Source: a virus. Taken from it: a stretch of 64,000 bases of DNA. Both the position numbers and the translations under genes were made by a program. Below, piece by piece: positions 1,488-56,879 of this stretch (positions within the stretch are counted from its first letter, which is position 1; each line of letters starts with the position of its first letter). The stretch lies in the IMG/VR virus record IMGVR_UViG_3300035663_000001, positions 64,542-128,541 of that record. The stretch is one strand, 5' to 3'. The notes under the pieces were generated by a model, which ran no database searches, was not told where the DNA came from, and saw only the letters and a program-made list of their open reading frames with translations.

Positions 1488-1907
1488 ATGTCAATTAAAA
1501 TTATACAAGACCCTATCGGATATATTAAATATACTAAGAATAATGAATTACACCGAGAAGATGGACCGGCAGTAGAATGGCCTTCAATAGAAGGTGATAA
1601 TGGGCATCAAGCTTGGTATCTTAATGGTAAGAGACATCGAGAAAATGGTCCCGCAGTATTTCATGTAAATGGAGATATTGAGTGGTATTACCATGGGGCT
1701 TTACATCGAGAGAATGGCCCGGCCATAGAGAGTACTATTGATGGAACAATTAAGATTTACGAATGGTATCTCCATGATATGCGGCATCGAGAAAATGGTC
1801 CGGCTGTAGAATGTTCGGATGGATATAAAGAGTTTTGGTTGAATAATGTTCTTATTCCTTCAGAAGAAGAATATTGGAGATTAATTAAGTTAAAAAACTT
1901 TTGGTAA
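1488..1907 (+). CDS. HREDGPA-repeat protein (23-aa MORN-like repeat)
   Basis: HRE(D/N)GPA repeats; tail EEEYWRLIKLKNFW. Confidence 0.85.
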   Translation: MSIKIIQDPIGYIKYTKNNELHREDGPAVEWPSIEGDNGHQAWYLNGKRHRENGPAVFHVNGDIEWYYHGALHRENGPAIESTIDGTIKIYEWYLHDMRHRENGPAVECSDGYKEFWLNNVLIPSEEEYWRLIKLKNFW

Positions 1908-1914
1908 AATTAAA

Positions 1915-2403
1915 ATGACCACCACAAAAAATAAACCAATCTATAAAAGAAAAAAAAGTAAAGACGGAGTTATAAAACATTATAGAAATAACAAATTACA
2001 TCGAGTAAAAGGGCCAGCAGTAGAATATCCTAATGGAAATAAAGAATGGTATCTTTATGGTAAATTACATCGAGAAAATGGTCCTGCAGTAGAATTTGCT
2101 TGCGGATCTAAATATTGGTATTGTTATGGTAAAAGACATCGAGAAGATGGTCCAGCTGTTGAGGCTGCTAATGGAAATAAGTTTTGGTGGTTTCATGGTC
2201 AAAAACATCGAGAAGATGGTCCAGCAGCAGAATTTATTTCTGGAACTAAAGAATGGTGGCTTCATGGCAAATGCCATCGAGAAGATGGTCCGGCTGTGCA
2301 TCCAGTTAAAGGTGCCAAACAATGGTATTATCATGGGAAATTTATTCCCGTTAAATCTACTAAGCAATTTAAAAGATGGTTAAAATTGCAAGCTTTATGG
2401 TAA
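1915..2403 (+). CDS. HREDGPA-repeat protein
   Basis: repeats; tail FKRWLKLQALW. Confidence 0.85.
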   Translation: MTTTKNKPIYKRKKSKDGVIKHYRNNKLHRVKGPAVEYPNGNKEWYLYGKLHRENGPAVEFACGSKYWYCYGKRHREDGPAVEAANGNKFWWFHGQKHREDGPAAEFISGTKEWWLHGKCHREDGPAVHPVKGAKQWYYHGKFIPVKSTKQFKRWLKLQALW

Positions 2404-2406
2404 ATT

Positions 2407-2793
2407 ATGCGAGAAATTAAGATAAGTGAATTTGGCACTATAAGATATTATTGGAATGGTAAGTTGCATCGAGAAGATGGTCCGGCAGTAGAATGGGATG
2501 ACGGCTCTAAAGAATGGTGGATTCAAGATATCTTACATCGAGAAGATGGTCCAGCAGCAGAATATATTGAAGGTACCAAATATTGGTACCATCATGGTCA
2601 ACTCCATCGAGTTGATGGTCCGGCCATAGAATTTGCTGATGGAACCAAATATTGGTATTGTTATCAACAATTACATCGAGCGGATGGTCCAGCCATAGAG
2701 TATTGTACTGGAAATAAAGAATATTGGATTTATAGTAAAAAATATACAGAAAAAGAATATTGGCGTTTAGTTAAGCTAAAAGCTTTATGGTAA
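2407..2793 (+). CDS. HREDGPA-repeat protein
   Basis: repeats; tail YWRLVKLKALW. Confidence 0.85.
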   Translation: MREIKISEFGTIRYYWNGKLHREDGPAVEWDDGSKEWWIQDILHREDGPAAEYIEGTKYWYHHGQLHRVDGPAIEFADGTKYWYCYQQLHRADGPAIEYCTGNKEYWIYSKKYTEKEYWRLVKLKALW

Positions 2794-3233
2794 AATATAA
2801 AAATAATAAATTGGGCGATATTTATTTACGTCTCGACCGACACATTGAAATAATTAAAGATCCTATTTTTGGTAAATTTTGTTACTATTATGATAATCTA
2901 ATTCATCGAGAAGATGGTCCCGCTATCCTATATTTGAATGGTGATAAAGCTTGGTTTCGCTATGGAGAGATTCATCGAGAAGATGGGCCGGCCATAGAAT
3001 ATGCTAGTGGAGAAAAACAATGGTGGTTTCAAGGACAATTGCATAGATCAAATGGTCCAGCTCTTATTGATAAGAAACGCAATTATACCGCCTGGTATTA
3101 TTTTGGTCTTCGCCATCGAGAAGATGGGCCAGCTGTTCAACATCATAATGGAGATAAAGAATTTTGGATTCAAAATAAAAAATATTCCGAAGCAGAATAT
3201 TGGCGGATGGTTAAATTAAAATCTTTATGGTAA
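2787..3233 (+). CDS. HREDGPA-repeat protein
   Basis: repeats; starts at ATG inside upstream TTATGGTAA. Confidence 0.85.
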   Translation: MVKYKNNKLGDIYLRLDRHIEIIKDPIFGKFCYYYDNLIHREDGPAILYLNGDKAWFRYGEIHREDGPAIEYASGEKQWWFQGQLHRSNGPALIDKKRNYTAWYYFGLRHREDGPAVQHHNGDKEFWIQNKKYSEAEYWRMVKLKSLW

Positions 3234-3236
3234 AAT

Positions 3237-3554
3237 ATGCAAGAAATTAAAGAAGACGAATTTGGAAATAAATTTTATTATTGGAATGGTAAATTGCATC
3301 GAGACGATGGTCCAGCCATAGAATGGGCTGATGGAAGTAAAAAATGGTATCTTCATGGCCAACTACATCGAGAAGCTGGACCAGCTATAGAAGATCCTAA
3401 TGGAGATAAATGGTGGTATCTTTATGGTAAATGTCATCGAGAAGATGGTCCAGCAGTAGAAAAAGCTAATGGATCTAAAAGATGGTACCTTCAAGGTATA
3501 GGATATATAGAAGAAGAATATTGGCGTTTAGTTAAATTAAAAGCTTTATGGTAA
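3237..3554 (+). CDS. HREDGPA-repeat protein
   Basis: MQEIK head, repeats, KLKALW tail. Confidence 0.85.
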   Translation: MQEIKEDEFGNKFYYWNGKLHRDDGPAIEWADGSKKWYLHGQLHREAGPAIEDPNGDKWWYLYGKCHREDGPAVEKANGSKRWYLQGIGYIEEEYWRLVKLKALW

Positions 3555-3558
3555 AGAT

Positions 3559-3948
3559 ATGCAAGAAATTAAAATAGATAAAGAAGGAACTAAAAGCTAC
3601 CATTATAATAGTCAATTACATCGAGAAGATGGTCCAGCGGTAGAATATAGTGATGGATCTAAAGAATGGTGGCGTCATGATCAACGCCATCGAGAAGATG
3701 GTCCAGCCGTAGTATGGATTGGTAGTAGTAAAAAATGGTATTATAATAATAAATTACATCGAGAAGACGGCCCAGCTGTAGAATGGTCTGATAGCAGTAA
3801 AGAATGGTGGCGTCATGGTCAACGCCATCGAGAAGATGGTCCAGCTATAGAGTATTTCTATGGAGAGAAAAACTGGTTTCTTCAAAATGAAGAAATAGAA
3901 TCAGAAGAAGAATATCGGCGTTTAGTTAAGTTGAAAGCTTTATGGTAA
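3559..3948 (+). CDS. HREDGPA-repeat protein
   Basis: MQEIK head, repeats, KLKALW tail. Confidence 0.85.
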   Translation: MQEIKIDKEGTKSYHYNSQLHREDGPAVEYSDGSKEWWRHDQRHREDGPAVVWIGSSKKWYYNNKLHREDGPAVEWSDSSKEWWRHGQRHREDGPAIEYFYGEKNWFLQNEEIESEEEYRRLVKLKALW

Positions 3949-3960
3949 TAAAAGGATGTT

Positions 3961-4164
3961 ATGTTAACTTTAAAACAAGCAAAGAATAAATTAAAAAATC
4001 ATTTAGTTCCATTACTAGGAGATAACCTAAAAGGTGTAGGAATTTCTAGCGTGACAACTATTGCTGTCAGAGTAGCTACAGAAAAAGATAAAAAAATAGT
4101 TCCAACCTCCTGGGAAGGTTTTAATGTAGAATGTTTAGTGGTTGGAGATTTATTTAAATTTTAA
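3961..4164 (+). CDS. hypothetical protein
   Basis: AAGGA RBS, ORF. Confidence 0.5.
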   Translation: MLTLKQAKNKLKNHLVPLLGDNLKGVGISSVTTIAVRVATEKDKKIVPTSWEGFNVECLVVGDLFKF

Positions 4165-4501
4165 ATATATGGATTTTGAGCAATATATCGTTGACATTAA
4201 AAAATTAACCAAGGCTATTTCTAAAAAAGAATCGGAAGTTTTTATAACCTATAAAGGTTACGAATTGGGAATATCCAAGCCCTGGCATATTAAATGCGAC
4301 ACAAAAGAATTTTATTCAGAGTCGCATTTGAATGCGGCTCAATCTTTATATAATATTCTAATAGAAGAATTAAAAAGAAAAATATCTGCCACTGAAGACC
4401 AAGTTTTTTCTTATAAAGAATCATTAACTGAAATAGTTAATCACCCTGGATTGGAATTAAAACGTGAAATATCTAGACGCCAAGAGACTTCACTCTCATG
4501 A
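4142..4501 (+). CDS. hypothetical protein (likely start 4169)
   Basis: ORF. Confidence 0.45.
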   Translation: MEIYLNFKYMDFEQYIVDIKKLTKAISKKESEVFITYKGYELGISKPWHIKCDTKEFYSESHLNAAQSLYNILIEELKRKISATEDQVFSYKESLTEIVNHPGLELKREISRRQETSLS

Positions 4502-4700
4502 TTCAGTTCTTAGTAAGAAAGATAATCAACTATTAACTGTATTAAGTATTGAAATAAATACTGAATATAAAACCGTAAAGATAAATTGTATAGACGCTAA
4601 TAATTATTTAGTAACTTTATATCATAACGAAATTAAATAATAAATATTTAAAATTACTTAGTAAGTGCAACGTGGGTAAATTTTGCGATACAGGTGAATT

Positions 4701-5783
4701 ATGTCAGATTGGAATTGTCAAGTTTGTCGAATAGAAAAGTTAGAAAAACATCCTAATGCAGATAGTCTCTCTATTGCCACCGTAATGTCCGACTATCCAG
4801 TCGTGGTAAAAACAGAAGACTACCATCTCAACCAATTAGTAGGTTATATTGCTATCGATACTATTGTTCCAGATACAGAACAATTCTATTTTCTATCTCC
4901 TAAAAATATAGAGAAATATGAAGAAAATGGAGAAATTAAAACTCGACCCAATGGGATGAAATATCCTCTTGGCTCTGTTCCAGAAAAGAATCGAGTAATT
5001 AAAGCTAAGAAAATTAGAAATGTTTATTCTCAGGGAATGTTAGTTCCAGCCCCACCTCACCTACAAGAAGGAGATTCTCTAGTAGAAGTCCTTAACCTAA
5101 AAAAGGTAGTAGAAGAGGAAGAAGAGAATATTACTAAATTTAAAAATAGTAATGCTGAGAAACCTCCAACTAACTGGGCCATTCCTTATTATGATATTGA
5201 AGGAATTCGGAAGTATATTAATTGTTTTCGTCCTCAAGAAGAGATTACCATTACAGAAAAATTACATGGAAGTAATGCAGCTTTTTGCTATGATGGTCAG
5301 CGTTTATGGGTTAAATCTAGAAATTTTTATAAAAAATTAGACCCGGATGATATGTGGTGGGATCTTGCTCTCAGGTATAATTTAGAAGAAAAACTATCTA
5401 AGTTTCCCAAACTAGTCTTCTTTGGAGAGGCTATTGGACAAGTCAAAGGATTTAGATATGATTCTAGTATTAAAGATGGTAAATTACATACTACAGTTCA
5501 TTTCTTTGATGTTTATGATGCTCATAATAATAGGTATTTAGATTATCAAGAAAGAGTTGATAAAATCAATCAACTGGAATTGTCTCCGGCTCCAGAATTA
5601 TATCGTGGCCCCTGGTTAGGAAAAGAGCACGCCTATCAATTTGCCGAAGGAATGTCTACTCTTAACTCTAAACATGTTAGAGAAGGCGCCGTAATAGTTC
5701 CTCTTCATGAGAGATTTGAGCCACGACTTAATGGCAGATTACAATTAAAAATAATTGGTCAAGGATACAATTTGTTAAAGTGA
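4701..5783 (+). CDS. ATP-dependent RNA ligase, Rnl2/DRB0094 type, with N-terminal OB fold
   Basis: HPNADSL N-domain; motif I TEKLHG; FFGE, FFDV, REG, LKII ligase motifs. Confidence 0.85.
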   Translation: MSDWNCQVCRIEKLEKHPNADSLSIATVMSDYPVVVKTEDYHLNQLVGYIAIDTIVPDTEQFYFLSPKNIEKYEENGEIKTRPNGMKYPLGSVPEKNRVIKAKKIRNVYSQGMLVPAPPHLQEGDSLVEVLNLKKVVEEEEENITKFKNSNAEKPPTNWAIPYYDIEGIRKYINCFRPQEEITITEKLHGSNAAFCYDGQRLWVKSRNFYKKLDPDDMWWDLALRYNLEEKLSKFPKLVFFGEAIGQVKGFRYDSSIKDGKLHTTVHFFDVYDAHNNRYLDYQERVDKINQLELSPAPELYRGPWLGKEHAYQFAEGMSTLNSKHVREGAVIVPLHERFEPRLNGRLQLKIIGQGYNLLK

Positions 5784-5793
5784 AAGGAAAAAA

Positions 5794-5982
5794 ATGAAAA
5801 GCGAAGATTATTTAGGATTAACAAAAAAGGCGGCACAAAATAAAGCAGAGCAACAAAATCTAATTTTCAGATTGATTAGAATCAATGATAAATCATATTT
5901 TGATTATCCTGAAGATACTAGATCTGATCGGGTTTGTGTTGAAATTGATCATGATAAAGTAGTAAAGGTCACTTTTCAATGA
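5794..5982 (+). CDS. small hypothetical protein (I78 inhibitor-like pattern)
   Basis: YLGLT...D.RSDRV.VEID pattern; RBS. Confidence 0.4.
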   Translation: MKSEDYLGLTKKAAQNKAEQQNLIFRLIRINDKSYFDYPEDTRSDRVCVEIDHDKVVKVTFQ

Positions 5983-6197
5983 CAGCTTGTCGTTGCGGAT
6001 ATATTGAAAATCAATCACATCATCCTTGTCATGGGCAAGAATATACTTGTTGTAAGCCTAGTACTATAAGATGGATTACTTATCCTACCGCATTAGCTGG
6101 TCAACAAATGAAATTGGGAGCTTATCAAACTTGGGCTTGTGATTCTTGTTGGGAAGATTTTCAGAAAAAATTGAAAGACCATTCAGATGGAAATTGA
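5979..6197 (+). CDS. Cys-rich hypothetical protein
   Basis: ORF overlapping neighbours. Confidence 0.45.
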   Translation: MTACRCGYIENQSHHPCHGQEYTCCKPSTIRWITYPTALAGQQMKLGAYQTWACDSCWEDFQKKLKDHSDGN

Positions 6198-6501
6198 AAT
6201 TAATTATTCAAAAGCTGAATTAGAGGCGGCGGTTAAATTTTTATCAAAACATAATACATCTTTTCTAGGTAAAGACGAAGAGATTCGTCAAACAATTTTA
6301 GATTATATTAATAAATTATCAACTGATGTTGATCGTTGGATGATTGGAACAATGGGTTTTGTCATTTTGGCTGAGAGAGAATTTGAAGGAATTAATTCTG
6401 ATAAGAATACTATTTATTACGAAATCCTAATTAATCCAGCAGTAAGTAAAGAACGAGAATATGTGACTTACTTGGTCAATGACCAAGAGGAAACATGTTA
6501 A
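6187..6501 (+). CDS. hypothetical protein
   Basis: ORF. Confidence 0.5.
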   Translation: MEIEINYSKAELEAAVKFLSKHNTSFLGKDEEIRQTILDYINKLSTDVDRWMIGTMGFVILAEREFEGINSDKNTIYYEILINPAVSKEREYVTYLVNDQEETC

Positions 6502-6542
6502 CTATTAATCTAGGATTAGAGTTAATTTGACGCCAACAATCT

Positions 6543-6557
6543 TGGCACGTTTCTTGC
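6543..6557 (+). promoter_or_regulatory. sigma54 (-24/-12) box
   Basis: TGGCAC-GTTTC-TTGC matches consensus, intergenic. Confidence 0.6.
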
Positions 6558-6564
6558 CACCGCT

Positions 6565-6595
6565 CCCAGCGACTAAATTTTTTCGCTGCTCCCTA
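6565..6595 (+). promoter_or_regulatory. repeated bipartite motif CCCAGCGACTAAA-N14-CCTA (copy 1)
   Basis: 4 intergenic copies with identical spacing. Confidence 0.65.
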
Positions 6596-6641
6596 AGTAG
6601 GAATGCAGCGGAGTTAAGATTAATTTAGGAAACCAGACATA

Positions 6642-7778
6642 ATGACTACACGTTCTTTTATTGTCCCGGTCGCTAACCAAAGCATCGTGGAGCAAAAAAT
6701 TGAGAAATTAAATAAGCGGGCTCTAAAATTAAAACTGGAGCCCGTTTCCATTACCTGGGGTAAAGCATTCTTAGAGCAAGATAAACTATGCTTGCCTTGC
6801 GAATTAACTGGACCTTTTCAAGTGTCTTATGATGGTTGGGAGTTTATTGCTACCTTACAGCATCTTCCTACCGGAGAAAATATCATTAGAGCCATTACTA
6901 ATGATTATGAAATTCCTCTTCAATATCGTACTTCCGGTAGCGCTTGCGAACATTGTAATGTTAAAAGATATCGCAAAGATACTTACGTTGTACGACATGA
7001 TGCTACTTGTGAGGCATTGCAAGTAGGATCTTCTTGTATTAAAGATTTTCTAGGAGGAAATTCTCCTGATAATATCTTGCAGCAAGCTGCCTTGGTCGGC
7101 GAATTAATTTCCTTTATGGAAGGTGCTCGTCACAATAATTTTGAAAATAATGAAGGCATTTATTATTTAAACCATGTCTTAGCGCAAGCGGCAGCTTGTA
7201 TTAGAGAATGTGGATGGATGTCTAAGACTGAAGCTAAAGAAACTGGAAAACTAGCTACGGCTACCGTAGTAGAATATAATCTATTACAAGATAGCACTTA
7301 TGGTTTATTTCCGGTGTCGACTGAAGATCGAGAGTTAGCAGAACAAGCTATTAATTGGGTAGAAAATCTGTCTGATGAAGAAGTAGAAAACTCTGATTAT
7401 CTCTATAACATTAGAGCCATTGCTCGTTCTGGAATGGTTGGAGTTAGAACTATTGGATATAGTGTTAGTATTATTTCTTCATATTTACGTCAAGTTAAAC
7501 AGTTACAGTTTAAAAAAGAATCTCAATTTGTTGGATTAGTAAATGATAGAAGTGTTTTTACTCTCAACCTTAAAAAGGTGACCGGGTTTTCTGGAAATTA
7601 TGGTTGGACCAATAAATATATTTTTCATGACCCTGCTGGTAACATTTTAGTATGGTTAACCTCTACCTCTAAAGATTTGCAAGAGGGGCAGCAATACCAA
7701 ATTAAAGCCACAGTCAAGGCTCACCAAGAATTCAAATCCATTAAAGAAACAATTCTTACTAGATGCGAAATTTTATGA
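6642..7778 (+). CDS. conserved phage protein with Zn finger and C-terminal OB-fold-like domain
   Basis: CEHC...R.R...VGSSC; C-terminal ILVW...IKATVKAH.EFK. Confidence 0.55.
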   Translation: MTTRSFIVPVANQSIVEQKIEKLNKRALKLKLEPVSITWGKAFLEQDKLCLPCELTGPFQVSYDGWEFIATLQHLPTGENIIRAITNDYEIPLQYRTSGSACEHCNVKRYRKDTYVVRHDATCEALQVGSSCIKDFLGGNSPDNILQQAALVGELISFMEGARHNNFENNEGIYYLNHVLAQAAACIRECGWMSKTEAKETGKLATATVVEYNLLQDSTYGLFPVSTEDRELAEQAINWVENLSDEEVENSDYLYNIRAIARSGMVGVRTIGYSVSIISSYLRQVKQLQFKKESQFVGLVNDRSVFTLNLKKVTGFSGNYGWTNKYIFHDPAGNILVWLTSTSKDLQEGQQYQIKATVKAHQEFKSIKETILTRCEIL

Positions 7779-9432: not shown

Positions 9433-9681
9433 TTGTTTAAAGGAGAAAAAATGAATTTAGAAGATCTTGAAGAGGCGTTAGAAGAGTTATTTCCATCAGG
9501 TTTTCATACGACTAAGGATAGTCGGGGTCAAATTATTATTATGACTGGTCTGTGTGAAGAGGATGATGGAGAGTTAGTAGAACTTCTATCTGCTGAAGAT
9601 GAAGAGGATGATGATTTTGATTCTGATTTTTCATCCATGGATGATGAAGATTTTGTTGATGAGTCTGATGACGATCATTGA
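9433..9681 (+). CDS. acidic hypothetical protein (likely start 9451)
   Basis: AGGAG RBS; D/E-rich tail. Confidence 0.5.
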   Translation: MFKGEKMNLEDLEEALEELFPSGFHTTKDSRGQIIIMTGLCEEDDGELVELLSAEDEEDDDFDSDFSSMDDEDFVDESDDDH

Positions 9682-10087
9682 TCTTAATCAAGAAATTAAA
9701 TGCCACGAAGAAGGAGATTACTCTATTATAGAAATTTCTTGTGGCATTAAGAAATATTATTACCGTAATGTTGGTTATCGAACTGTATATCCTAATGGAT
9801 TTTCTATCTACCATAAAAATGGTACTCTTCATCGAGAAGATGGTCCTGCTATAGAGCGCCCAGATGGCCATCAAGAATGGCGTCTCAATGGTCTATTTCA
9901 TAGGACTGATGGTCCAGCTTTAATAGATAAAAAAGGTAATAAAAAGTGGTATTGTAATGGAGAATTACATCGTACAGATGGGCCGGCTATTGAAATGATT
10001 AGTGGTCGCGTGTATTATTACTTACAGGGTAAAAGAATTTATTCTGTCAATAAATTTAATCGTTTAGTTAAACTTCAATTTATTTAG
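9599..10087 (+). CDS. HREDGPA-repeat protein, divergent (likely start 9668)
   Basis: repeats; tail FNRLVKLQFI. Confidence 0.8.
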   Translation: MKRMMILILIFHPWMMKILLMSLMTIIDLNQEIKCHEEGDYSIIEISCGIKKYYYRNVGYRTVYPNGFSIYHKNGTLHREDGPAIERPDGHQEWRLNGLFHRTDGPALIDKKGNKKWYCNGELHRTDGPAIEMISGRVYYYLQGKRIYSVNKFNRLVKLQFI

Positions 10088-10101
10088 AATTTACAAGACA
10101 A

Positions 10102-10563
10102 ATGAAGCCGACTTATATCTTAACCTCTAATAAAACTAAAAAATATATGTTGAATGGGCAGCTTCATCGAGAAGATGGACCGGCTATTATAAATACAAAT
10201 GGAGATAAGTTGTGGTATTTAAACGATCTTCTCCATCGAGAAGATGGCCCAGCCATAGAGCGTGTTAATGAAAGTAAACATTGGTTTCTTCATGGCGAAT
10301 GCCATCGAGCAGATGGCCCTGCTACTGAATATAAAGATCATACCAGATATTATCTTTATAATAAGTTACATCGAACAGATGGGCCAGCAGTAGAGTGGAG
10401 TAATAATTCTAATTCTTATCAGGTATGGTACTTTTTAATGTCAGGTTTGACAGATTATAAAGATATAGAATATCCTGTTGAAGGAAAACGCTGGTATCTT
10501 GAAGATAAAGAATATACCGAAGAAGAATATTGGCGAATGCTTAAGTTACAAGCTTTATGGTAA
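10102..10563 (+). CDS. HREDGPA-repeat protein
   Basis: repeats; KLQALW tail. Confidence 0.85.
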   Translation: MKPTYILTSNKTKKYMLNGQLHREDGPAIINTNGDKLWYLNDLLHREDGPAIERVNESKHWFLHGECHRADGPATEYKDHTRYYLYNKLHRTDGPAVEWSNNSNSYQVWYFLMSGLTDYKDIEYPVEGKRWYLEDKEYTEEEYWRMLKLQALW

Positions 10564-10868
10564 AGTATGATGAATTTGGTATTAAAAGATATTTAGTAAA
10601 TGGAGAATTACATCGAGAAGATGGCCCGGCCGTAGAATTTAGCAATGGAGAAAAACATTGGTGTCTTCATGGTCAGCTTCATCGAGAAGATGGACCTACA
10701 GTAATATATGCTAATGGAAGTAAAAACTGGTATTTGCATGATCGATTGCATCGAGAAGATGGTCCAGCGATAGAAAACGCTAATGGAGAGAAATGGTGGT
10801 ACCTTCAAGGTAAACAATATACAGAAGAAGAATATTGGCGGACGGTTAAATTAAAAACTTTATGGTAA
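10557..10868 (+). CDS. HREDGPA-repeat protein
   Basis: repeats; KLKTLW tail. Confidence 0.85.
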   Translation: MVKYDEFGIKRYLVNGELHREDGPAVEFSNGEKHWCLHGQLHREDGPTVIYANGSKNWYLHDRLHREDGPAIENANGEKWWYLQGKQYTEEEYWRTVKLKTLW

Positions 10869-46252: not shown

Positions 46253-46570
46253 ATGGAAAAAATTACAACAGATAAATATGGTAATAAATTTTATTCTTAT
46301 AATGGTCAACTCCATCGAGAAGCTGGTCCAGCCGTAGAATATGCTAATGGAAATAAATATTGGTATCGTCATGGTCGTCTTCATCGAGACGATGGCCCGG
46401 CAGTAGAATATGGTAATGGTAGTAAAGAATGGTGGTTTCATGGCAAATGTCATCGAGAAGATGGCCCAGCAGCAGATCATGTTGATGGCTATAAAGCGTG
46501 GTTCCTTCAAGGTAAAAAATATACAGAAGAAGAATATTGGCGATTAGTTAAGTTGAAAGCTTTGTGGTGA
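46253..46570 (+). CDS. HREDGPA-repeat protein
   Basis: repeats and tail. Confidence 0.85.
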   Translation: MEKITTDKYGNKFYSYNGQLHREAGPAVEYANGNKYWYRHGRLHRDDGPAVEYGNGSKEWWFHGKCHREDGPAADHVDGYKAWFLQGKKYTEEEYWRLVKLKALW

Positions 46571-46573
46571 AAT

Positions 46574-46891
46574 ATGCAAGAAATTAAAACAGATAACAAT
46601 GGCAAGAAAAAATATTATTGTAATGGAAATCTTCATCGAGAAGATGGTCCAGCGATAGAATTCTATAATGGAGATAAATTTTGGTTGCTTCATGGTCAAC
46701 GCCATCGAGAGAATGGTCCCGCAATAGAATGTTCTAATGGAGATAAATATTGGTATCTTCATGATCGATGTCATCGAGAAAATGGTCCAGCGGTAGAATT
46801 AGCTAATGGTACTAAAAGATGGTACCTTCAAAATAAAGAATATTCAGAAGAAGAATATTTGAGAGTAGTTAAGCTAAAAGCTTTATGGTAA
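46574..46891 (+). CDS. HREDGPA-repeat protein
   Basis: repeats and tail. Confidence 0.85.
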   Translation: MQEIKTDNNGKKKYYCNGNLHREDGPAIEFYNGDKFWLLHGQRHRENGPAIECSNGDKYWYLHDRCHRENGPAVELANGTKRWYLQNKEYSEEEYLRVVKLKALW

Positions 46892-50290: not shown

Positions 50291-50809
50291 ATGCAAGAAA
50301 TTAAAGAAGATGAATTTAGTAAATGCTATTATTGGAATGGTCAACTCCATCGAGAAGATGGTCCAGCGGCAGAATGGTCTGAGGGCCATAAGCAATGGTG
50401 GATTCATGGTCAACGACATCGAGAAAACGGTCCAGCTATAGAGTGGGAGAGTGGATCCAAAGAATGGCATCTCTATAGTCAATGCCATCGAGAGGGCGGT
50501 CCAGCGGTAGAAGTAGCTAATGGGGATAAACAATGGTGGCTTCATGGTCAACTCCATCGAATAGATGGTCCAGCCTTAGAAAGCCCGGATAATAAAGTCT
50601 GGTATTTTAATGGACGTCTTCATCGAGAAGATGGCCCTGCTATTGAATATTCTAGTGGAGCTAAAGAGTGGTGGTATCACGGCAAATTACATCGAGAAGA
50701 TGGTCCGGCTATAGAATATGCTAATGGAATTAAATTGTGGTATCTTCAAGATAAAATCTATTCAGGAGAAGAATATTGGAGAGTGGTGAAATTAAAAGCT
50801 TTATGGTAA
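50291..50809 (+). CDS. HREDGPA-repeat protein
   Basis: repeats and tail. Confidence 0.85.
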   Translation: MQEIKEDEFSKCYYWNGQLHREDGPAAEWSEGHKQWWIHGQRHRENGPAIEWESGSKEWHLYSQCHREGGPAVEVANGDKQWWLHGQLHRIDGPALESPDNKVWYFNGRLHREDGPAIEYSSGAKEWWYHGKLHREDGPAIEYANGIKLWYLQDKIYSGEEYWRVVKLKALW

Positions 50810-50813
50810 ATTT

Positions 50814-51134
50814 ATGCAAAAAGTGAAAATAGATCAAGAGGATAATAAATTTTATTACTATAATGGTCAAAAACATCGAGAAGATGGCCCAGCAGTAGAG
50901 TTTATTTCTGGAACCAAAGAATATTATTGGAATGGTATTCTTCATCGAGAAGATGGCCCAGCTATCGAATGGTCTGATGGATCCAAAGAATGGCTTATTC
51001 ATGGTCGACATCATCGAGAAGATGGTCCGGCCATGGATTATATCAATGGAGTAAAATGGTGGTTTCTTCAAAATAAAGAATACTCTGAAGAAGACTATTG
51101 GCGAGTGGTTAAATTGAAAGCGTTATGGCAATAG
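50814..51134 (+). CDS. HREDGPA-repeat protein
   Basis: repeats and tail. Confidence 0.85.
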   Translation: MQKVKIDQEDNKFYYYNGQKHREDGPAVEFISGTKEYYWNGILHREDGPAIEWSDGSKEWLIHGRHHREDGPAMDYINGVKWWFLQNKEYSEEDYWRVVKLKALWQ

Positions 51135-51135
51135 T

Positions 51136-51453
51136 ATGCAAGAAATTAAAATAGATGGAGATGGGACTAAAAAATATTATTGGAATAGTCAGATACATCG
51201 AGAAGATGGTCCAGCTATAGAATGGCCTAATGGTTCTAAAGAGTGGTGGATGCATGGTCAATTGCATCGAGAAAATGCTCCTGCGATGGAGCATAGCACT
51301 GGAATTAAAGTTTGGTATTATCATGGTCAACGACATCGAATAGATGGCCCAGCATTTGAATCACCTTGTGGCTTCACAGGATTCTATATTCAAGGCAAAG
51401 AATATACAGAAGAAGAGTATTGGAGATTAGTTAAATTGAAAGCTTTGTGGTAA
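51136..51453 (+). CDS. HREDGPA-repeat protein
   Basis: repeats and tail. Confidence 0.85.
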   Translation: MQEIKIDGDGTKKYYWNSQIHREDGPAIEWPNGSKEWWMHGQLHRENAPAMEHSTGIKVWYYHGQRHRIDGPAFESPCGFTGFYIQGKEYTEEEYWRLVKLKALW

Positions 51454-51457
51454 AGTT

Positions 51458-51703
51458 ATGCAGGAAATTAAAACAGACCGCTGGGGTAAATATTATTATT
51501 GGAATGGCCAATTACATCGAGAAGATGGTCCTGCCATAGAATATACTGATGGAAGTAAATTTTGGTATCTTCATGATCAGCGTCATCGAGAAGATGGTCC
51601 AGCTATACAACATTTTAGTGGGCTTAAAGAGTGGTGGCTTCAAGGTAAACAATATTCAGAAAAAGAATATTGGCGAGTAGTTAAGCTCAAAGCTTTGTGG
51701 TAA
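51458..51703 (+). CDS. HREDGPA-repeat protein
   Basis: repeats and tail. Confidence 0.85.
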   Translation: MQEIKTDRWGKYYYWNGQLHREDGPAIEYTDGSKFWYLHDQRHREDGPAIQHFSGLKEWWLQGKQYSEKEYWRVVKLKALW

Positions 51704-52086
51704 TTATGCAAACAATTGTAAATCAATTTGGTAATATATATTATTCTTATAATGGTCAGTTACATAGAGAAGATGGTCCTGCTATAGAATATAAAGATGG
51801 TAGAAAAGATTGGTATCTTCATGGTCAACGACATCGAGAAGATGGTCCTGCCATAGAACATCCTAATGATTGTAAACAATGGTGGTTTCATGGTAAATTA
51901 CATCGAACAGATGGTCCAGCAATAGAATATCTTAATGGAGGTAAAGAGTGGTATCTTCACGATGCGATAGAATATGGTGTTAATTCAATTAAAGGATCTG
52001 CTGGAACTAAAGAATGGTATCTTAACGGTCAAAAATATTCAGAAGAAGATTATTGGAGAGTAGTAAAGTTACAAGCTTTATGGTAA
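51697..52086 (+). CDS. HREDGPA-repeat protein
   Basis: repeats and tail. Confidence 0.85.
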   Translation: MVIMQTIVNQFGNIYYSYNGQLHREDGPAIEYKDGRKDWYLHGQRHREDGPAIEHPNDCKQWWFHGKLHRTDGPAIEYLNGGKEWYLHDAIEYGVNSIKGSAGTKEWYLNGQKYSEEDYWRVVKLQALW

Positions 52087-52089
52087 AGT

Positions 52090-52623
52090 ATGCAAAAAAT
52101 TAAAATCGACAAATTGGGGACCAAAAAATATTTTTTGAAAGGTGATCTACATCGAGAAGATGGTCCAGCCCTAGAATATGCTAATGGTAGTAAAGAATGG
52201 TGGATTCATGGTCAACGACATCGAGAAGATGGTCCAGCCATAGATCGTATTAGTGGAGCTAAAGAATGGTGGGTTAAGGGGCAATTACATCGAGAAGATG
52301 GTCCAGCCATAGAATATTCTAATGGAGATAAACAATGGTGGATTCATGGCAAAAGACATCGAGAAGGTGGTCCAGCAGTAGAATCTTTTGATGGAAGTAA
52401 AGAATGGTATCGTCATGGAAAACTTCATCGAGAAGATGGTCCAGCAGTAGAACTGGCTGATGGATATAAAGAATGGTATCGTCATGGAAAACTTCATCGA
52501 GAAGATGGTCCAGCAGTAGAATCTTTTGATGGAAGTAAAAGATGGTTTTACTGCGACGTTAAAATACCAGTCTCTTGTCAATTAGATTTTCAGCGCTATT
52601 TAAAATTAAAATTATTTTGGTAA
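52090..52623 (+). CDS. HREDGPA-repeat protein
   Basis: repeats; tail FQRYLKLKLFW. Confidence 0.85.
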   Translation: MQKIKIDKLGTKKYFLKGDLHREDGPALEYANGSKEWWIHGQRHREDGPAIDRISGAKEWWVKGQLHREDGPAIEYSNGDKQWWIHGKRHREGGPAVESFDGSKEWYRHGKLHREDGPAVELADGYKEWYRHGKLHREDGPAVESFDGSKRWFYCDVKIPVSCQLDFQRYLKLKLFW

Positions 52624-52626
52624 ATT

Positions 52627-52989
52627 ATGTATCAGACGAAAACTATTATAGAAGATAATAAATCTTATTTCTTGCTGATGGATAACGAAGGAGATAAATA
52701 TTGGCTATTCAATAGTACTCTTCATCGAGAAAATGGTCCAGCTATTGAGCGAGCTAATGGCTCTCAAATGTGGTTTAATTACGGTCAACTCCATCGTATG
52801 GATGGGCCAGCCATTATCTATGATAATGGTAATCAAGAGTGGTATTGTCATGATCTTCTTCATCGAGAAGACGGACCAGCCATAGAACATGTTTCTGGCC
52901 GGAAAGAATGGTGGTTTAAAGGCAAATTTGTCACTTCTTCTTCTCAAGAAGAATTTGATAGATCGCTAAAATTACAAGCTTTATGGTGA
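52627..52989 (+). CDS. HREDGPA-repeat protein
   Basis: repeats; tail FDRSLKLQALW. Confidence 0.85.
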   Translation: MYQTKTIIEDNKSYFLLMDNEGDKYWLFNSTLHRENGPAIERANGSQMWFNYGQLHRMDGPAIIYDNGNQEWYCHDLLHREDGPAIEHVSGRKEWWFKGKFVTSSSQEEFDRSLKLQALW

Positions 52990-53382
52990 TTAATAATTTA
53001 ATGTAAACGTAAAATCATCATAATCAATATCTTCGCCATTTTTAACGGTTCCAAATAATTCTAAATTTCTTTGCAGATAATTTCTAATTTGATTAGATAA
53101 TGGAGAGTACTTATCTGTTAAATGGCTAGGAGCTACTGCTGGATAAGAAACTTTAATTTTATTACCGTCTCTGACTACATTAATAGCTAAGGTAGCTCTA
53201 TCCTCTTGTAACATACTAACAAAAGGCATAACACCACTAGTTTCGGTACTAGTAGAAGCATTAGCTACTTGTTGCTTAATATAATCTGCTATTTCTTGTT
53301 TCATTTCATTAGCATCAATATCAGCATATTTTTTTAATAATTTATTAGCTTGTTTAACTAGTTGAAGAGTGGCTTTTTTCAT
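52990..53382 (-). CDS. hypothetical protein
   Basis: ORF. Confidence 0.55.
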   Translation of the reverse strand: MKKATLQLVKQANKLLKKYADIDANEMKQEIADYIKQQVANASTSTETSGVMPFVSMLQEDRATLAINVVRDGNKIKVSYPAVAPSHLTDKYSPLSNQIRNYLQRNLELFGTVKNGEDIDYDDFTFTLNY

Positions 53383-53391
53383 GATCTTTAG

Positions 53392-54651
53392 GCAAGGACA
53401 CCCTCAGCCTTGTGCTGAGGGAGGAATTGCCTCTCCTTTCTGCTATCTAAATAAATTTTTAGGTTACACAAAAATTCCTATATATTGATATATCACTACA
53501 TATGAGGTTATATAGAACGGTCAAACTAAAACTTGATGTCAAGGCAGAAGAAATTCTACCTTCACTGCAAGCTTATACTGCTGCTTTTAATCTTGTCTGT
53601 CAAATAGGTTACAAGAGCAAAATAACTAATTCTATTAAACTACATAAGCTAACTTACCAAGACTGTCGAACTAACTTTAACTTACCATCTCAATTAGCAA
53701 TTTCTGCTAGAACTAAAGCCGCAGAAGCTCTTAAAAGCATTAAAGCTAAAAATAAGTATAGCAAATGTCCACAGTCAAAGTTAGCTGCCATTCGACTAGA
53801 TTGTAATAGCTACTCTATCTCTAAATCTGGAGTTGTGTCTATTCTGACTATTGCTGGTAGAAAGAAAATTAAGCTAGATATTCCTCAGTATTATCAGCAT
53901 TATTTTACTGATTGGAAGTATACTAGTGCTGACCTTCTGATTAAGAAGAATACTATCTATTTGCATATCTCTTTTGAGAAAGAAAGAGAAGACGTAAAGG
54001 TTAATGGTAAGTTTTTAGGAGTTGATCGAGGTATCAAAAAGTTAGCCGTTACTTCAGATAATAAGTTTTATTGCGGAAGTAAACTTAAGTCAATATGTCA
54101 CAAGTATAAAGCATTAAGGAGAAAATTACAGAAAGTTGGTAGTCCATCTGCTAAAAGGCATCTTAGAAACCTTTCAGGTAAAGAAAAACGGTTTAAAGCA
54201 GACATTAACCATCAGATTAGTAAACAGATTATTAATAGTTTAAATCCAGGTGATACCGTAGTACTAGAAAAGTTAATTGGTATTAGAAGATCACGTATGA
54301 GAAAACCTCAAAGATCAGCCTTGAATAGTTGGAATTATTATCAACTAGAGCAGTTCCTAACCTATAAAGGTCAGGCAAAAGGCATACAAGTAGTCCATGT
54401 TAATCCTGCTTATACCAGTCAACAATGTAGTAAATGCGGGTTTACTGAGAAGAAAAACAGGAAGACTCAGGTTAGTTTTTGTTGTCAACAATGTGGATTT
54501 AAACTAAATGCAGACTTAAATGCTAGTAGAAATATTAGCAGACGAGCATTAGATGACTATATGTTATTTAATGGGGCTGAAGTCAATCAGCCTATGGTAA
54601 GAGCAGCGAAGCTACTTACAAGCCACCAGCCTTGTGCTGGTGATAATTGAC
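53392..54651 (+). mobile_element. IS200/IS605-family (IS1341-type, tnpB-only) element
   Basis: subterminal hairpins with shared CAGCCTTGTGCTG core at both ends; right end ...AATTGAC. Confidence 0.8.
53502..54650 (+). CDS. tnpB: TnpB RNA-guided nuclease
   Basis: GVDRG, VLE, NPAYTSQQCSKC, CQQC, NADLNAS. Confidence 0.95.
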   Translation: MRLYRTVKLKLDVKAEEILPSLQAYTAAFNLVCQIGYKSKITNSIKLHKLTYQDCRTNFNLPSQLAISARTKAAEALKSIKAKNKYSKCPQSKLAAIRLDCNSYSISKSGVVSILTIAGRKKIKLDIPQYYQHYFTDWKYTSADLLIKKNTIYLHISFEKEREDVKVNGKFLGVDRGIKKLAVTSDNKFYCGSKLKSICHKYKALRRKLQKVGSPSAKRHLRNLSGKEKRFKADINHQISKQIINSLNPGDTVVLEKLIGIRRSRMRKPQRSALNSWNYYQLEQFLTYKGQAKGIQVVHVNPAYTSQQCSKCGFTEKKNRKTQVSFCCQQCGFKLNADLNASRNISRRALDDYMLFNGAEVNQPMVRAAKLLTSHQPCAGDN

Positions 54652-54680: not shown

Positions 54681-54998
54681 ATGGCAAAAGAAATAATACG
54701 ATTTAGCAATAAGATTCTCTATTTCGAGGATGACCATCTCCATCGAGAAGATGGTCCAGCCATCGAGTTTGCAGATGGTTCTCAAGAATGGTATTTTAAC
54801 GATCAACGTCATCGAGAAGGAGGCCCCGCCATAGAATGGTCTGATGGCAGTAAAGCTTGGTATCTTCATGGTCAACGACATCGAGAAGATGGGCCAGCAG
54901 CCGAATATTCTAGCGGTTTTAAAGCTTGGTTTATTAATGATAAACAATATTCAGAAGAAGACTATTGGCGAGTGGTTAAATTAAAAACTTTATGGTGA
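54681..54998 (+). CDS. HREDGPA-repeat protein
   Basis: repeats and tail. Confidence 0.85.
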   Translation: MAKEIIRFSNKILYFEDDHLHREDGPAIEFADGSQEWYFNDQRHREGGPAIEWSDGSKAWYLHGQRHREDGPAAEYSSGFKAWFINDKQYSEEDYWRVVKLKTLW

Positions 54999-55002
54999 AG
55001 TT

Positions 55003-55317
55003 ATGCAAGAAATTAAAGAAGATCACTGGGGAAAATATTATTATTGGAGTGATCGTCTCCATCGAGAAGATGGCCCTGCGATAAAATTTTTTAATGGCGA
55101 TGAACATTGGTATCTTCATGGCTCTCGTCATCGAGAAGATAGACCAGCCGTAGAATATGCTAATGGAACTAAATATTGGTATCTTCATGGTCAACGACAT
55201 CGAGAAGATGGACCAGCCATAGAATGGTCTAATGGAGATAAAGAGTGGTACCTTCAAGGTAAACAATATACAGAAGAAGAATATTGGCGGCTAGTTAAAT
55301 TAAAAGCTTTATGGTGA
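55003..55317 (+). CDS. HREDGPA-repeat protein
   Basis: repeats and tail. Confidence 0.85.
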   Translation: MQEIKEDHWGKYYYWSDRLHREDGPAIKFFNGDEHWYLHGSRHREDRPAVEYANGTKYWYLHGQRHREDGPAIEWSNGDKEWYLQGKQYTEEEYWRLVKLKALW

Positions 55318-55320
55318 AGT

Positions 55321-55707
55321 ATGCAAGAAATTAAGATAGATAAAGATGGAACTAAAAGATATTATTGGAATGGTTAGCTGCATCGAGAAGATGGTCCAGC
55401 CATAGAATGGCCTAATGGAACTAAAGAGTGGTATTTTCATAATCAACTCCATCGAAAAGATGGTCCAGCCCTAGAATATAATAATGGATCTAAAGAGTGG
55501 TATTTTTATGGAAAGTACCACCGAGAAGATGGCCCGGCCAGAGAATATGCTGATGGAAGTAAAATATGGTGTCTTCATGGTCTTTTCCATCGAGAAGATG
55601 GCCCGGCTATCGAATATGCTAATGGAGATAAATCTTGGTACCTTCACGGTACGCCATATTCAGAAGAAGACTATTGGAGAGTGGTTAAATTACAAGCTTT
55701 GTGGTAA
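55321..55707 (+). pseudogene. full-length HREDGPA-repeat gene with a single in-frame TAG at 55375
   Basis: NG*LHRED where paralogs have NGQLHRED or NGKLHRED. Confidence 0.85.
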
Positions 55708-55710
55708 AGT

Positions 55711-56097
55711 ATGCAAGAAATTAAAATAGATGAATTTGGTAATAAAAGATATTATTGGAATGGTATCATACATCGAGAAGACGGTCCGGCAATAGAGTAT
55801 ATTAATGGGGATAAATATTGGTATTGTCATGGGCGATGGCATAGAGAAGACGGCCCAGCGATAGATAGTTCCCTTGATGGAAAACATTGGTATCTTCATA
55901 GTCAACGTCATCGAGAAGACGGTCCGGCGATAGAATATGCTGATGGTAGTAAAGAATATTGGATTCATGGAAAACGCCATCGAGAAGATGGCCCTGCTCT
56001 AGAATATTCTAATAAAATGAAAGAATGGTACCTTCAAGGTAAACAATATTCAGAGCAAGAATATTGGCGAGTGGTTAAATTGAAAGCTTTATGGTAA
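55711..56097 (+). CDS. HREDGPA-repeat protein
   Basis: repeats and tail. Confidence 0.85.
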   Translation: MQEIKIDEFGNKRYYWNGIIHREDGPAIEYINGDKYWYCHGRWHREDGPAIDSSLDGKHWYLHSQRHREDGPAIEYADGSKEYWIHGKRHREDGPALEYSNKMKEWYLQGKQYSEQEYWRVVKLKALW

Positions 56098-56420
56098 AAT
56101 TTATGCAAAAAATTAAGATAGATAAATTCGGCAATAAAGAATACTATTGGAATGGTGAATTACATCGAGAAGATGGACCCGCAGTAGAATGTGCTAATGG
56201 AGATAAAGAATGGTATTTTAATGACCGATATCATCGAGAAGATGGTCCAGCGGTAGAATTTATTTCTGGATATAAATCTTGGTGGTTTCATGGTCAACGT
56301 CATCGAGAAGATGGTCCAGCAGTAGAATATGCTAATGGTCATAAAGAATGGTGGATTAGACATATTCAGTATTCTGAAGAAAATTATTGGAGAGTAGTAA
56401 AGCTCAAAGTTTTATGGTAA
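56091..56420 (+). CDS. HREDGPA-repeat protein
   Basis: repeats and tail. Confidence 0.85.
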   Translation: MVKFMQKIKIDKFGNKEYYWNGELHREDGPAVECANGDKEWYFNDRYHREDGPAVEFISGYKSWWFHGQRHREDGPAVEYANGHKEWWIRHIQYSEENYWRVVKLKVLW

Positions 56421-56423
56421 AGT

Positions 56424-56879
56424 ATGCAAGAAATTATAATAGATGAACTTGGGACTAAAAGATACTATTGGAATGATGAATTGCATCGAGAAGATGGTCC
56501 AGCGATAGAATATTTTAATGGAGACAAATTTTGGTATTTTCATGGACAATGTCATCGAGAAGATAAACCAGCTATAGAATGTAATAATGGTGATCAAGAG
56601 TGGTGGATTTATGATAAATTACATCGAGCAGATGGTCCAGCAATAGACTTTATTAGTGGCCGTCAAGAATGGTGGATTCATGGTAAAAAACATCGAGAAG
56701 GTGGTCCAGCCATCATCTGGGATGATGGCTATAAAGCTTGGTATATATCAGGCCAACGACATCGAGAAGATGGTCCGGCCATAGAATATAGTAATGGGTA
56801 TAAAGAATGGTATCTTCACGGTACACCATATACAGAAGAAGATTATTGGAGAGTAGTTAAATTAAAAGCTTTATGGTAA
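56424..56879 (+). CDS. HREDGPA-repeat protein
   Basis: repeats and tail. Confidence 0.85.
   Translation: MQEIIIDELGTKRYYWNDELHREDGPAIEYFNGDKFWYFHGQCHREDKPAIECNNGDQEWWIYDKLHRADGPAIDFISGRQEWWIHGKKHREGGPAIIWDDGYKAWYISGQRHREDGPAIEYSNGYKEWYLHGTPYTEEDYWRVVKLKALW

Follow-up and report, generated by a model that had tools for sequence, protein, structure and literature searches.

A family of small repeat proteins, built from 23-residue units that begin with the motif HREDGPA, occupies about a quarter of a 64,000-bp window of viral DNA. This window comprises bases 64,542-128,541 of the 128,541-bp IMG/VR viral contig IMGVR_UViG_3300035663_000001, and the coordinates below are those of the window unless stated otherwise. 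The source was taken for a huge tailed phage rather than a eukaryotic giant virus, because non-family genes give strong PHROG matches (phrog_2141 at 2.5e-95, phrog_2319 at 1.2e-72), transfer RNA (tRNA) genes are present, and the language-model look-alike clusters of one family member in the Atlas are 94-100% Viruses, Uroviricota being the commonest. The GC content is 35%; completeness of the contig is 28% by CheckV, and the full genome size is estimated at ~450 kb. No capsid gene was seen in the 128.5-kb fragment, in a search that was uninformative since its capsid-family controls likewise went without a match. No match was obtained when 22 kb of the window were compared by megablast with GenBank phages, no close relative phage was found via the inter-array gene at 6642-7778, and a single weak PHROG match was obtained for four family proteins. 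Parts of the window were found in 24 lake or fresh-water DNA runs, ten of which contained at least half of the sampled words; none of the runs found was of RNA.

Tandem Arrays of the Repeat Genes

The 20-nt core CATCGAGAAGATGGTCCRGC, with at most 3 mismatches allowed, was matched 149 times in the window, on the + strand only, and 0 times in 100 shuffles. Intact + strand open reading frames (ORFs) with the H-R-x-D-G-P-A motif number 42 and fall into eight clusters, at the places where a first-pass annotation of the same DNA had put eight tandem arrays; the family covers 16,257 of 64,000 bases (25.4%), in agreement with its estimate of about a quarter. Its count of about 42 intact and three broken paralogs was also borne out, two copies being broken by nonsense codons and one interrupted. 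Six core matches lie outside the intact family ORFs and mark two broken copies. No two genes are identical, as had been noticed: among 741 full-length pairs from the contig, the best is 74% identical and the median 52%. When the other half of the contig is included, 73 family ORFs make up 27% of the DNA.

All eight arrays, delimited by motif ORFs, lie on the + strand. Array 1, where core matches were used in addition, consists of six genes (1488-1907, 1915-2403, 2407-2793, 2787-3233, 3237-3554 and 3559-3948), separated by gaps of 3-7 nt or joined by a 7-nt overlap. Array 2 (9599-10868) has three genes, the first of which (9599-10087) is atypical in its hydrophobic N-terminus, the only one among the 73 genes, and in its divergent tail, VKLQFI. 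Six genes form array 3 (11811-13740), including the one at 13101-13487 whose structure was modelled (see below). Array 4 (36908-39227) also has six genes, among them a seven-unit gene of 197 aa (37686-38279), and is preceded on the + strand by a broken copy at ~36698-36904; core matches at 36716 and 36785 and the translation reveal two units and a canonical tail, with an in-frame stop replacing the head. The two genes of array 5 (40425-41198) are followed by a tRNA-Gln gene. Arrays 6 (43800-46891) and 7 (50291-52989) hold seven genes each. In gene 45240-46211 (323 aa) of array 6, three units are fused to an unrelated C-terminal part, which has no Pfam match above threshold; ~700 nt of foreign coding DNA have displaced the tail, a remnant of which is left downstream at ~46212-46252. 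Array 8 begins with two genes (54681-55317) and ends with three (55711-56879), and between them core matches mark a broken four-unit copy on the + strand (55321-55707), with TAG at 55375-55377 where the consensus has Gln. Rescue of this copy by TAG recoding was considered and rejected, as TAG terminates six of the 73 intact family genes.

Family genes that follow one another on the same strand form 70 pairs, and in 44 of these the distance is -7 to +7 nt; the junctions include a 3-nt gap in 24 pairs, a 4-nt gap in 8 and a 7-nt overlap in 9. The overlap has the sequence ttATGGTAA, in which the upstream Leu-Trp-stop contains the downstream ATG. At -20 to -5, a motif resembling a Shine-Dalgarno site is present in 28 of the 83 other genes, but in only 7 of the 73 that belong to the family. 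Because of the 3-4 nt gaps and 7-nt overlaps, and because most genes have no Shine-Dalgarno site of their own, translation is likely coupled along the head-to-tail chains. Promoter scans were uninformative on timing: sigma-70 promoters showed no enrichment (78 found, 81 expected), and the five matches to the sigma-54 core pattern (1.2 expected) include none tied to an array.

Architecture of the Repeat Proteins

The unit consensus is HREDGPA-[IV]-E-x-x-[ND]-G-x-K-x-W-[YW]-x-[HN]-G-x-x. The contig contains 283 such units. Leaving aside the terminal unit of every one of the 73 genes, which no other follows, there are 210 spacings between successive units, of which 185 measure 23 aa exactly. H1, R2, G5, P6, A7, G13 and W17 are almost invariant, while E3, D4, E9 and K15 are strongly conserved. 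The residues after PA(I/V)E and near the W strand had been described as strongly variable, and the per-position entropy confirms it, with 2.6-3.2 bits at positions 10, 11, 14, 16 and 19 and 1.9-2.2 bits at positions 8, 18, 22 and 23. These variable positions, about nine per unit, are found on both sides of the two tight turns and, along the central strand, in alternation with the conserved residues.

The N-terminal capping hairpin has the consensus MQEIKID..G.K.YY.NG, and 32 of the 73 genes start with MQ[EK][IV]. It is followed by 1-7 units of 23 residues (14 in the longest fusion) and by a C-terminal helix, EEEYWRLVKLKALW. The canonical tail YSEEEYWRLVKLKALW ends 59 of the 73 genes; the length of these is 36+23n exactly in 22 of the 59 and within one residue in 37. 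The claim that lengths step in exact 23-aa units is true for 18 of the 40 canonical-tail genes of the window and fails for the rest, with 28 of the 40 lying within ±1 aa. Single small domains without an anchoring part or signal peptide are encoded by 59 of the 73 genes.

Five long fusion proteins (286-761 aa), counted among the 73 family ORFs, are found in the first half of the contig, at contig coordinates 34400-35917, 38499-39410, 40737-42224, 50474-52759 and 53984-54844. Each contains one to four complete modules, in which a head-like hairpin, 1-4 units and a tail-like helix, YTEAEWKKKVAAMKKK, follow one another in this order. Ser/Thr/Pro-rich linkers join the modules in multi-module fusions, and a shared helical C-terminal domain of ~150 residues closes all five proteins. 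Only six relatives of this domain were found among 5.8 billion proteins; it matches no Pfam model, and its AlphaFold2 model is poor, with a predicted local distance difference test (pLDDT) score of 53. Since the tail-like helix is internal to each module of the fusions, the tail helix belongs to the fold and is best read as its C-terminal cap, perhaps also serving contacts.

Predicted Fold and Family Membership

The 128-aa paralog at 13,101-13,487 was modelled with AlphaFold2 from a 22-row alignment at a pLDDT of 94.5. The predicted fold is a run of short strands arranged in hairpins, plus a C-terminal helix at residues 115-127. With this predicted model as query, Foldseek against the PDB returned MORN1 of Toxoplasma, Trypanosoma and Plasmodium, the MORN4-Myo3a complex, junctophilins and radial-spoke MORN proteins, at E values of 1.1e-4 to ~1e-2, probability 1.0 and a template modelling (TM) score of ~0.5. 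MORN repeats, for which a structure-based definition was given by Sajko et al. 2020 (PMC7725318), are described there as protein-protein interaction modules. The phage units have the 23-residue period, and the model predicts one β-hairpin per repeat in a fold like that of solved MORN proteins; G-P-A replaces the GxG motif, and no YEGEW is present. As the period and the predicted hairpin fold agree and the GxG and YEGEW motifs do not, we consider the family a MORN-like repeat class of its own.

Profile comparisons gave no MORN family among the Pfam hits of six proteins at E ≤ 1, and a profile of 22 family sequences found no PDB chain below E 0.39. PF07661 was not matched in Pfam by six proteins, nor were the YwqK models of NCBIfam by five; one relative (P0017), among the 120 listed, has a precomputed PF07661 match. 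DUF6745 (PF20530) is the only matching Pfam model, at 32.5 and 60.3 bits in some members against a gathering cut-off of 27. Its alignments span ~20-45 of 206 profile positions (best stretches ~52-113), which correspond to the LHREDGPA motif, and none extends over the 206-position domain length; judged from these alignments, DUF6745 is a shared motif and not a domain membership. A predicted two-copy complex of one paralog scored 0.01, a value that speaks neither for nor against pairing.

Selection at Scaffold and Variable Positions

According to the first-pass annotation, a constant scaffold with a variable surface is shuffled by recombination through the 69-nt period and forms an antibody-like collection of binders. 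This DIVERSIFYING-library idea was put to tests of selection, recombination, population comparison and reverse transcriptase. For selection, 400 in-register gene pairs of equal unit number were compared, with 14 positions of the unit assigned to the scaffold and nine to the variable class. The ratio of nonsynonymous to synonymous p-distance (pN/pS) was 0.62 overall, 0.30 for the scaffold and 1.11 for the variable positions, at a mean pS of 0.44. For the 59 canonical tails it was 0.31 (pS 0.52, pN 0.16), so that the tail is kept by protein-level selection and not by recent copying. Evidently, scaffold and tail are under purifying selection.

Per-codon pN/pS exceeds 1 at positions 8, 10, 11, 12, 14, 18 and 19, partly from locally low pS. 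In 16 array genomes, the first- and second-position diversity of the most variable codons is 0.51, compared with 0.38 at the four-fold wobbles of Gly5, Pro6 and Ala7. The variable positions change at or somewhat above the neutral rate, which excludes constraint and leaves positive selection unproven. The check by entropy and dN/dS that had been proposed separated the two classes, the high-entropy sites having a pN/pS of ~1.1 and the scaffold 0.30. The notion of a constant scaffold with variable positions gains support from these values and from the protein-binding type of the predicted fold, although the selection at those positions is not clearly positive.

Recombination and Stability of the Arrays

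Nucleotide identity between units is 70.2% within a gene and 68.7% between genes, and peaks at 94.2%, below 95% in every pair. In 215 of 257 cases, the unit nearest in sequence to a given one lies in a distant gene. The mean best unit match of 0.827, compared with 0.809 ± 0.002 after a codon-column shuffle, reveals a little real genealogy, and collinear unit matches are rare (4 of 165; 0.36 under the null). By the pairwise homoplasy index (PHI), the p value was ≤ 0.02 for the seven five-unit genes and 0.04-0.10 for the 22 with three units, but 0.24-0.65 for the 8 with two and 0.07-0.67 for the 16 with four. The proposed check for mosaicism is therefore positive for the five-unit genes and marginal for the three-unit genes, but non-significant for those with two and four units. 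There is no sign of recent exchange, in tests whose power is low because the sequences are close to saturation. Since unit numbers differ in multiples of 69 nt, unequal exchange through the 69-nt period did happen at some time.

Population comparison was made with Logan contigs, which hide rare variants. In four other lake-water runs, pieces of up to 3.5 kb were found with 0 differences, and identical pieces inside the arrays cover 37,950-38,657, 45,322-46,553 and 50,396-51,418. The listed base differences cluster in a TnpB gene and the stretch preceding it, 53188-54610. Contig joints were considered as rearrangements and rejected; they recur unchanged in each of the four runs, with sides of 18-64 nt, and are probably cross-matches between paralogs. 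A reverse transcriptase was not found, RVT_1 giving 0 matches in the 128.5-kb fragment with a positive control in three genomes, and the fragment lacks the combination of reverse transcriptase and near-identical template repeat that defines the target of a diversity-generating retroelement.

Taken together, these results speak against ongoing shuffling through the 69-nt period, PHI being mostly negative, unit pairs of at least 95% identity absent and the arrays identical in four metagenomes. An antibody-like generator is likewise not supported, given the lack of a reverse transcriptase in the fragment and of any sign of recent exchange. The repertoire appears to be old, maintained by selection, stable and not actively recombining.

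Distribution and Repeated Expansion

Of 8,000 candidate proteins scored in a word-indexed search, 7,843 were significant, and among the 120 listed none has an informative name. An exhaustive profile search of 1.84 billion cluster representatives gave 35,996 at E ≤ 1e-3 and 21,890 at E ≤ 1e-10. Alignment-based scans confirmed at least 502 of 585 candidate stretches in IMG/VR and at least 291 of 600 in GTDB genomes; pattern scans made from single proteins, which were over-specific, gave 6 viral loci and 0 cellular ones. Three or more family ORFs were present at 31 of 85 viral loci (up to ~20 kb) and at 13 of 80 loci of the cellular collection. The family had been attributed to large DNA viruses, an attribution that we revise, as the carriers are tailed phages and mobile elements. 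Only two carriers are cultured, Celeribacter phage P12053L and the 490-kb Agrobacterium phage Atu_ph07 (gp378 and gp379), and in both the family genes are hypothetical by annotation; five plasmid records also match. The family genes of P12053L, gp09 and gp10, lie in a block of small genes between thyX/endonuclease and primase/polymerase, a position which hints at an early or intracellular role. A domain scan of 14 long relatives showed a phage tail-collar domain with EF-hands in one and LRV/HEAT repeats in another.

The genes of one locus share their head and tail and differ in length by steps of 23, while other loci have heads and tails of their own. Locus L113 contains 18 genes in 12 kb with tails that are close variants of QQVTSSSILD; the tails are NRETNSLEFE in L173, KLLFNSEVMV in L140 and IEVSKLKITK in L132, and that of L096, KLKALW, is the same as in the studied phage. 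The family genes are 57-71% identical to those of L096, and the only flank homolog, a GIY-YIG gene, 34-37%. The best match per paralog has a median identity of 72.5% in its own contig and 73.8% at other loci, the former being the higher for 20 of 70 paralogs. Lineage cannot be read from the repeat cores.

In an isolate contig of Janthinobacterium sp. RB2P8 (L015), a seven-gene array at 2950-6330 has the head MKNGRYEE and the tail KPKPTQKRSKI. It lies directly upstream of a 444-aa ORF (6327-7661) that is relaxase-like by eye only. The position of this array would fit the leading region of a conjugative element, and anti-defence genes gather in such regions.

The silent sites of the units differ from those of other genes and from genome to genome. 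The core had been called nearly invariant even at synonymous sites, which is correct for the codons CAT (96%), CGA (94%), GAA (97%) and GAT (93%) but not for the wobbles of Gly5 (GGT 67%), Pro6 (CCA 57%) and Ala7 (GCA 34%), which are free. CGA accounts for 25% of the Arg codons in 42 other long ORFs of the contig. Fixation is also observed outside the core, with GCT in 93% at Ala11, CTT in 86% at Leu19 (background 11%) and ATA in 76% at Ile8 (background 14%). Positions 11, 14 and 19 hold 12-16 different residues, yet the third base is T in 85-88% of units. This is not simply the pattern of a young subfamily, because in the 60 units with Ala11 the Ala7 wobble is still spread across all four bases.

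The choice of the Arg codon in the HR motif differs between genomes regardless of similar GC content. L113 has AGA in 40 of its 44 units; CGT is used throughout in L173 (23 of 23) and L132 (21 of 21), CGC prevails in L045 (20 of 26), and CGA does so in L140 (36 of 37) and L096 (19 of 20). The frequency of a third-base T at variable codons is near 0 or near 1 depending on the genome, and at most four-fold sites the major wobble base differs between genomes. On the simplest reading of these codons, the units of each genome would descend from one founder unit or be kept alike by conversion, which would make the expansion separate in each lineage. Genome-specific heads, tails and silent-site states together indicate that the arrays are repeated lineage-specific expansions in many phages and mobile elements. 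On a rather unlikely reading, the silent-site pattern may also mark a constraint at the DNA or RNA level tied to array maintenance or translation.

Genes Between and Beside the Arrays

The window contains seven tRNA genes (Glu-TTC, Gly-TCC, Leu-TAA, Leu-CAA, Asn-GTT, Thr-TGT and Gln-TTG), located at 32985-34641 and, in the case of the tRNA-Gln after array 5, at 41251-41324. Several of them read codons that are heavily used by the repeat family (GAA, GGA, AAT, CAA, TTA), and a link of the tRNA set to the codon load of the family is possible. Genes of RNA repair and translation between the arrays (4701-5783, 15373-16917, 16919-17938 and 28395-29948) comprise an RNA ligase (PF09414), a lysyl-type class II tRNA synthetase, an aminotransferase-like gene and a Ro60/TROVE-vWA gene. 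Mobile or homing genes amid the arrays (34734-35993 on the - strand, 42764-43816, 53502-54650, 56871-57536 on the - strand and 32055-32957) are two TnpB-like genes, a LAGLIDADG gene, a GIY-YIG gene with a helix-turn-helix (HTH) part and an HNH-like gene. The GIY-YIG homing-endonuclease-like gene with HTH (56871-57536, - strand; Pfam GIY-YIG at 2.1e-11) abuts array 8 and is the one with homologs of 34-37% identity beside the L096 array; it is a neighbour and at most a candidate functional partner. The genes that recur beside the family over 166 loci encode RNA ligases, metallophosphoesterases, HNH and GIY-YIG endonucleases and a SRAP peptidase, and no toxin family was found among the ten top neighbour clusters scanned.

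Two different GC-rich hairpins were observed on the + strand, at 40303-40332, ~100 nt ahead of array 5, and at 53419-53445, ahead of the TnpB gene. Each is followed by the same ten bases, CTTTCTGCTA, and the hairpin with this sequence may be a shared regulatory or processing signal.

Proposed Function and Alternatives

We propose with moderate confidence that the paralogs are a stable panel of intracellular binders, each with a different partner. In this proposal, a huge tailed phage has expanded, in the accessory part of its genome, one small soluble cytoplasmic repeat family to at least 73 genes. Each protein is a self-contained domain, in which an N-terminal cap hairpin, stacked 23-residue hairpins in a MORN-like sheet and a C-terminal helix follow one another, with H1, R2, G5, P6, A7, E9, G13, K15 and W17 as the frame and about nine positions free to vary. 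The products of the chained genes are probably made together by coupled translation. The expansion took place within this lineage, and independently in many other phages and mobile elements. Each paralog would bind a different partner in the infected cell, much like MORN repeats and the bacterial immunity proteins of the MORN-variant type; YwqK, one of the latter, neutralises a toxin by binding. The likely partners would be host proteins, for example defence or toxin effectors, against which the phage would hold a standing panel of binders or inhibitors. The role in anti-defence or host binding is what we infer from this architecture.

Several observations weigh against the intracellular panel. 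The variable positions were picked after their variability had been seen, p-distances saturate, and per-codon pS ranges from 0.04 to 0.80, which means that silent sites are unevenly constrained; a pN/pS near 1 at variable sites is also expected from unconstrained drift. The presumed placement of the variable residues on one face is deduced from strand alternation only. Five proteins matched no NCBIfam family above cut-off and 0 families of the PADLOC defence models at E ≤ 0.1, and no neighbour gene is universal, the best cluster occurring at 18 of 166 loci. The idea of DNA mimicry was rejected on the median isoelectric point of 6.4. Finally, the tail-collar domain in one of 14 long relatives and the Ser/Thr/Pro-linked fusions, which resemble displayed beads on a string, fit a role at the virion or surface better.

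Such a role, in which virion-borne or cell-surface modules would bind a periodic ligand (cell wall, glycan, capsule) as decoration, fibre or lysin-targeting domains and paralogs would broaden adsorption, nevertheless seems improbable to us. The fusions do string complete modules before a shared C-terminal helical domain, a possible anchor, in addition to the Phage Tail Collar domain already mentioned, and two papers report MORN repeats in phage endolysins (PMC9238414) and a link of MORN-variant hairpin folds to cell-wall-binding annotations (PMC10584680). However, small single domains without anchor or signal peptide make up 59 of the 73 genes, the arrays are found among tRNA, RNA-repair and homing-endonuclease genes and not structural genes, the P12053L copies lie within an early/replication block, and the model of the putative anchor is unreliable at its pLDDT of 53. 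Still less probable is an actively diversifying library that is continually reshuffled via the 69-nt period. PHI is non-significant for two- and four-unit genes, no recent exchange tract was found at a unit maximum of 94%, array pieces are identical in four other metagenomes, whose joints are probably paralog cross-matches, and the fragment has no reverse transcriptase. These findings stand against the variation of repeat number in 23-aa units, the orphan tail remnants, the significant PHI in the seven five-unit genes and its marginal values in three-unit genes; the position of the nearest unit in a distant gene (215 of 257), which would also suit reshuffling, is expected as well from saturation of 69-nt pieces (0.827 vs 0.809 in the null).

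An even slimmer chance is given to a self-assembling intracellular structure, in which paralogs would co-polymerise via caps and tails into a mesh or scaffold like that of TbMORN1. MORN1 dimerises by its C-termini and forms meshes (PMC7725318), the head and tail common to the paralogs suit a common interface, and coupled gene chains suggest a high combined dosage; surface diversity would be needless for a scaffold, yet nine positions per unit are free, and in the fusions the helix is internal to the modules. We regard it as the least probable that the tandem amplification was for the most part neutral or selfish, like a genomic accordion whose single copies do little. Such amplification could account for the near-neutral rate at variable positions, for the three broken or interrupted copies in the window and for arrays interleaved with TnpB, LAGLIDADG, GIY-YIG and HNH genes, but a mean pS of 0.44 with scaffold and tail pN/pS of ~0.3 means long-term purifying selection on nearly every copy. 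Moreover, 42 of ~45 copies are intact, recent duplicates are absent, the architecture is kept across many unrelated phages, and 27% of a size-limited genome would be a heavy cost. Against these alternatives, the stable panel of intracellular binders remains our preferred reading. A far-reaching form of it, which we put forward tentatively and consider rather unlikely, is that many unrelated large phages, and some plasmids or integrative and conjugative elements, independently built and kept panels of dozens to perhaps hundreds of MORN-like mini-binders, under positive selection at the hairpin-flanking positions, each neutralising a different host defence or toxin protein.

Relation to Known Systems and Significance

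Ankyrin and MORN repeat families are reportedly expanded in amoebal giant viruses. The predicted fold of the phage family is like that of eukaryotic MORN proteins such as MORN1 (6t68, 6t69, 6t4d), MORN4-Myo3a (6jle) and the junctophilins (7rxq, 9uo9). In contrast to these, HREDGPA and K-x-W-[YW] replace GxG and YEGEW, no Pfam MORN or PDB profile match is found, and the phage proteins are tiny stand-alone domains with a capping helix, encoded by dozens of tandem genes. The bacterial MORN_2 repeat (PF07661, YwqK-type) is likewise a prokaryotic hairpin repeat, with the pattern aromatic-x-N-G-K-L ... G; unlike it, the phage proteins tested have no PF07661 or NCBIfam match, and no adjacent toxin gene was seen in the clusters scanned. 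A large multigene expansion is similarly known for Fusobacterium MORN2, with >40 genes of unknown function in F. periodonticum; most of these proteins have signal peptides, which the phage family lacks (bioRxiv 10.1101/534297).

Among jumbo phages, a ~35-copy zinc-ribbon expansion in Bacillus phage G was called unprecedented by Iyer et al. 2021 (PMC7824862). As here, one small binding-type domain was amplified to tens of copies. The fold is different, the stereotyped stop/start gene chains are a feature of the present family, and its at least 73 copies in 28% of the genome are about double the number, a comparison on which the supplement of PMC7824862 may bear. In a literature search that covered main texts, no publication was found on the HREDGPA/HRxDGPA repeat, DUF6745 or such arrays, and among the papers listed on jumbo, huge or mega-phages none contained MORN. 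In marine viral data, MORN-annotated repeats were 37 times enriched in long reads over assemblies (PMC9238414).

The present window adds to this picture the multi-module fusions that recast the tail as a cap, evidence against ongoing shuffling, and a silent-site signature of repeated independent expansion. One unstudied protein family makes up about a quarter of the DNA seen from this phage; in public data it forms ~36,000 distinct clusters at 50% identity, and it has been expanded repeatedly in different phages. The family explains the poor assembly of such phage regions, and offers a natural system for studying the stability of repeat proteins and of tandem arrays despite 69-nt periodic homology. 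Should the proteins prove to bind host targets, they would offer a large and as yet unused reservoir of natural inhibitors against bacterial defences and toxins, and of compact stable binding scaffolds of 80-200 aa. Should the panel indeed neutralise defences, it would represent a widespread, unrecognised class of phage counter-defence, with a logic like that of variable-repeat immune receptors.

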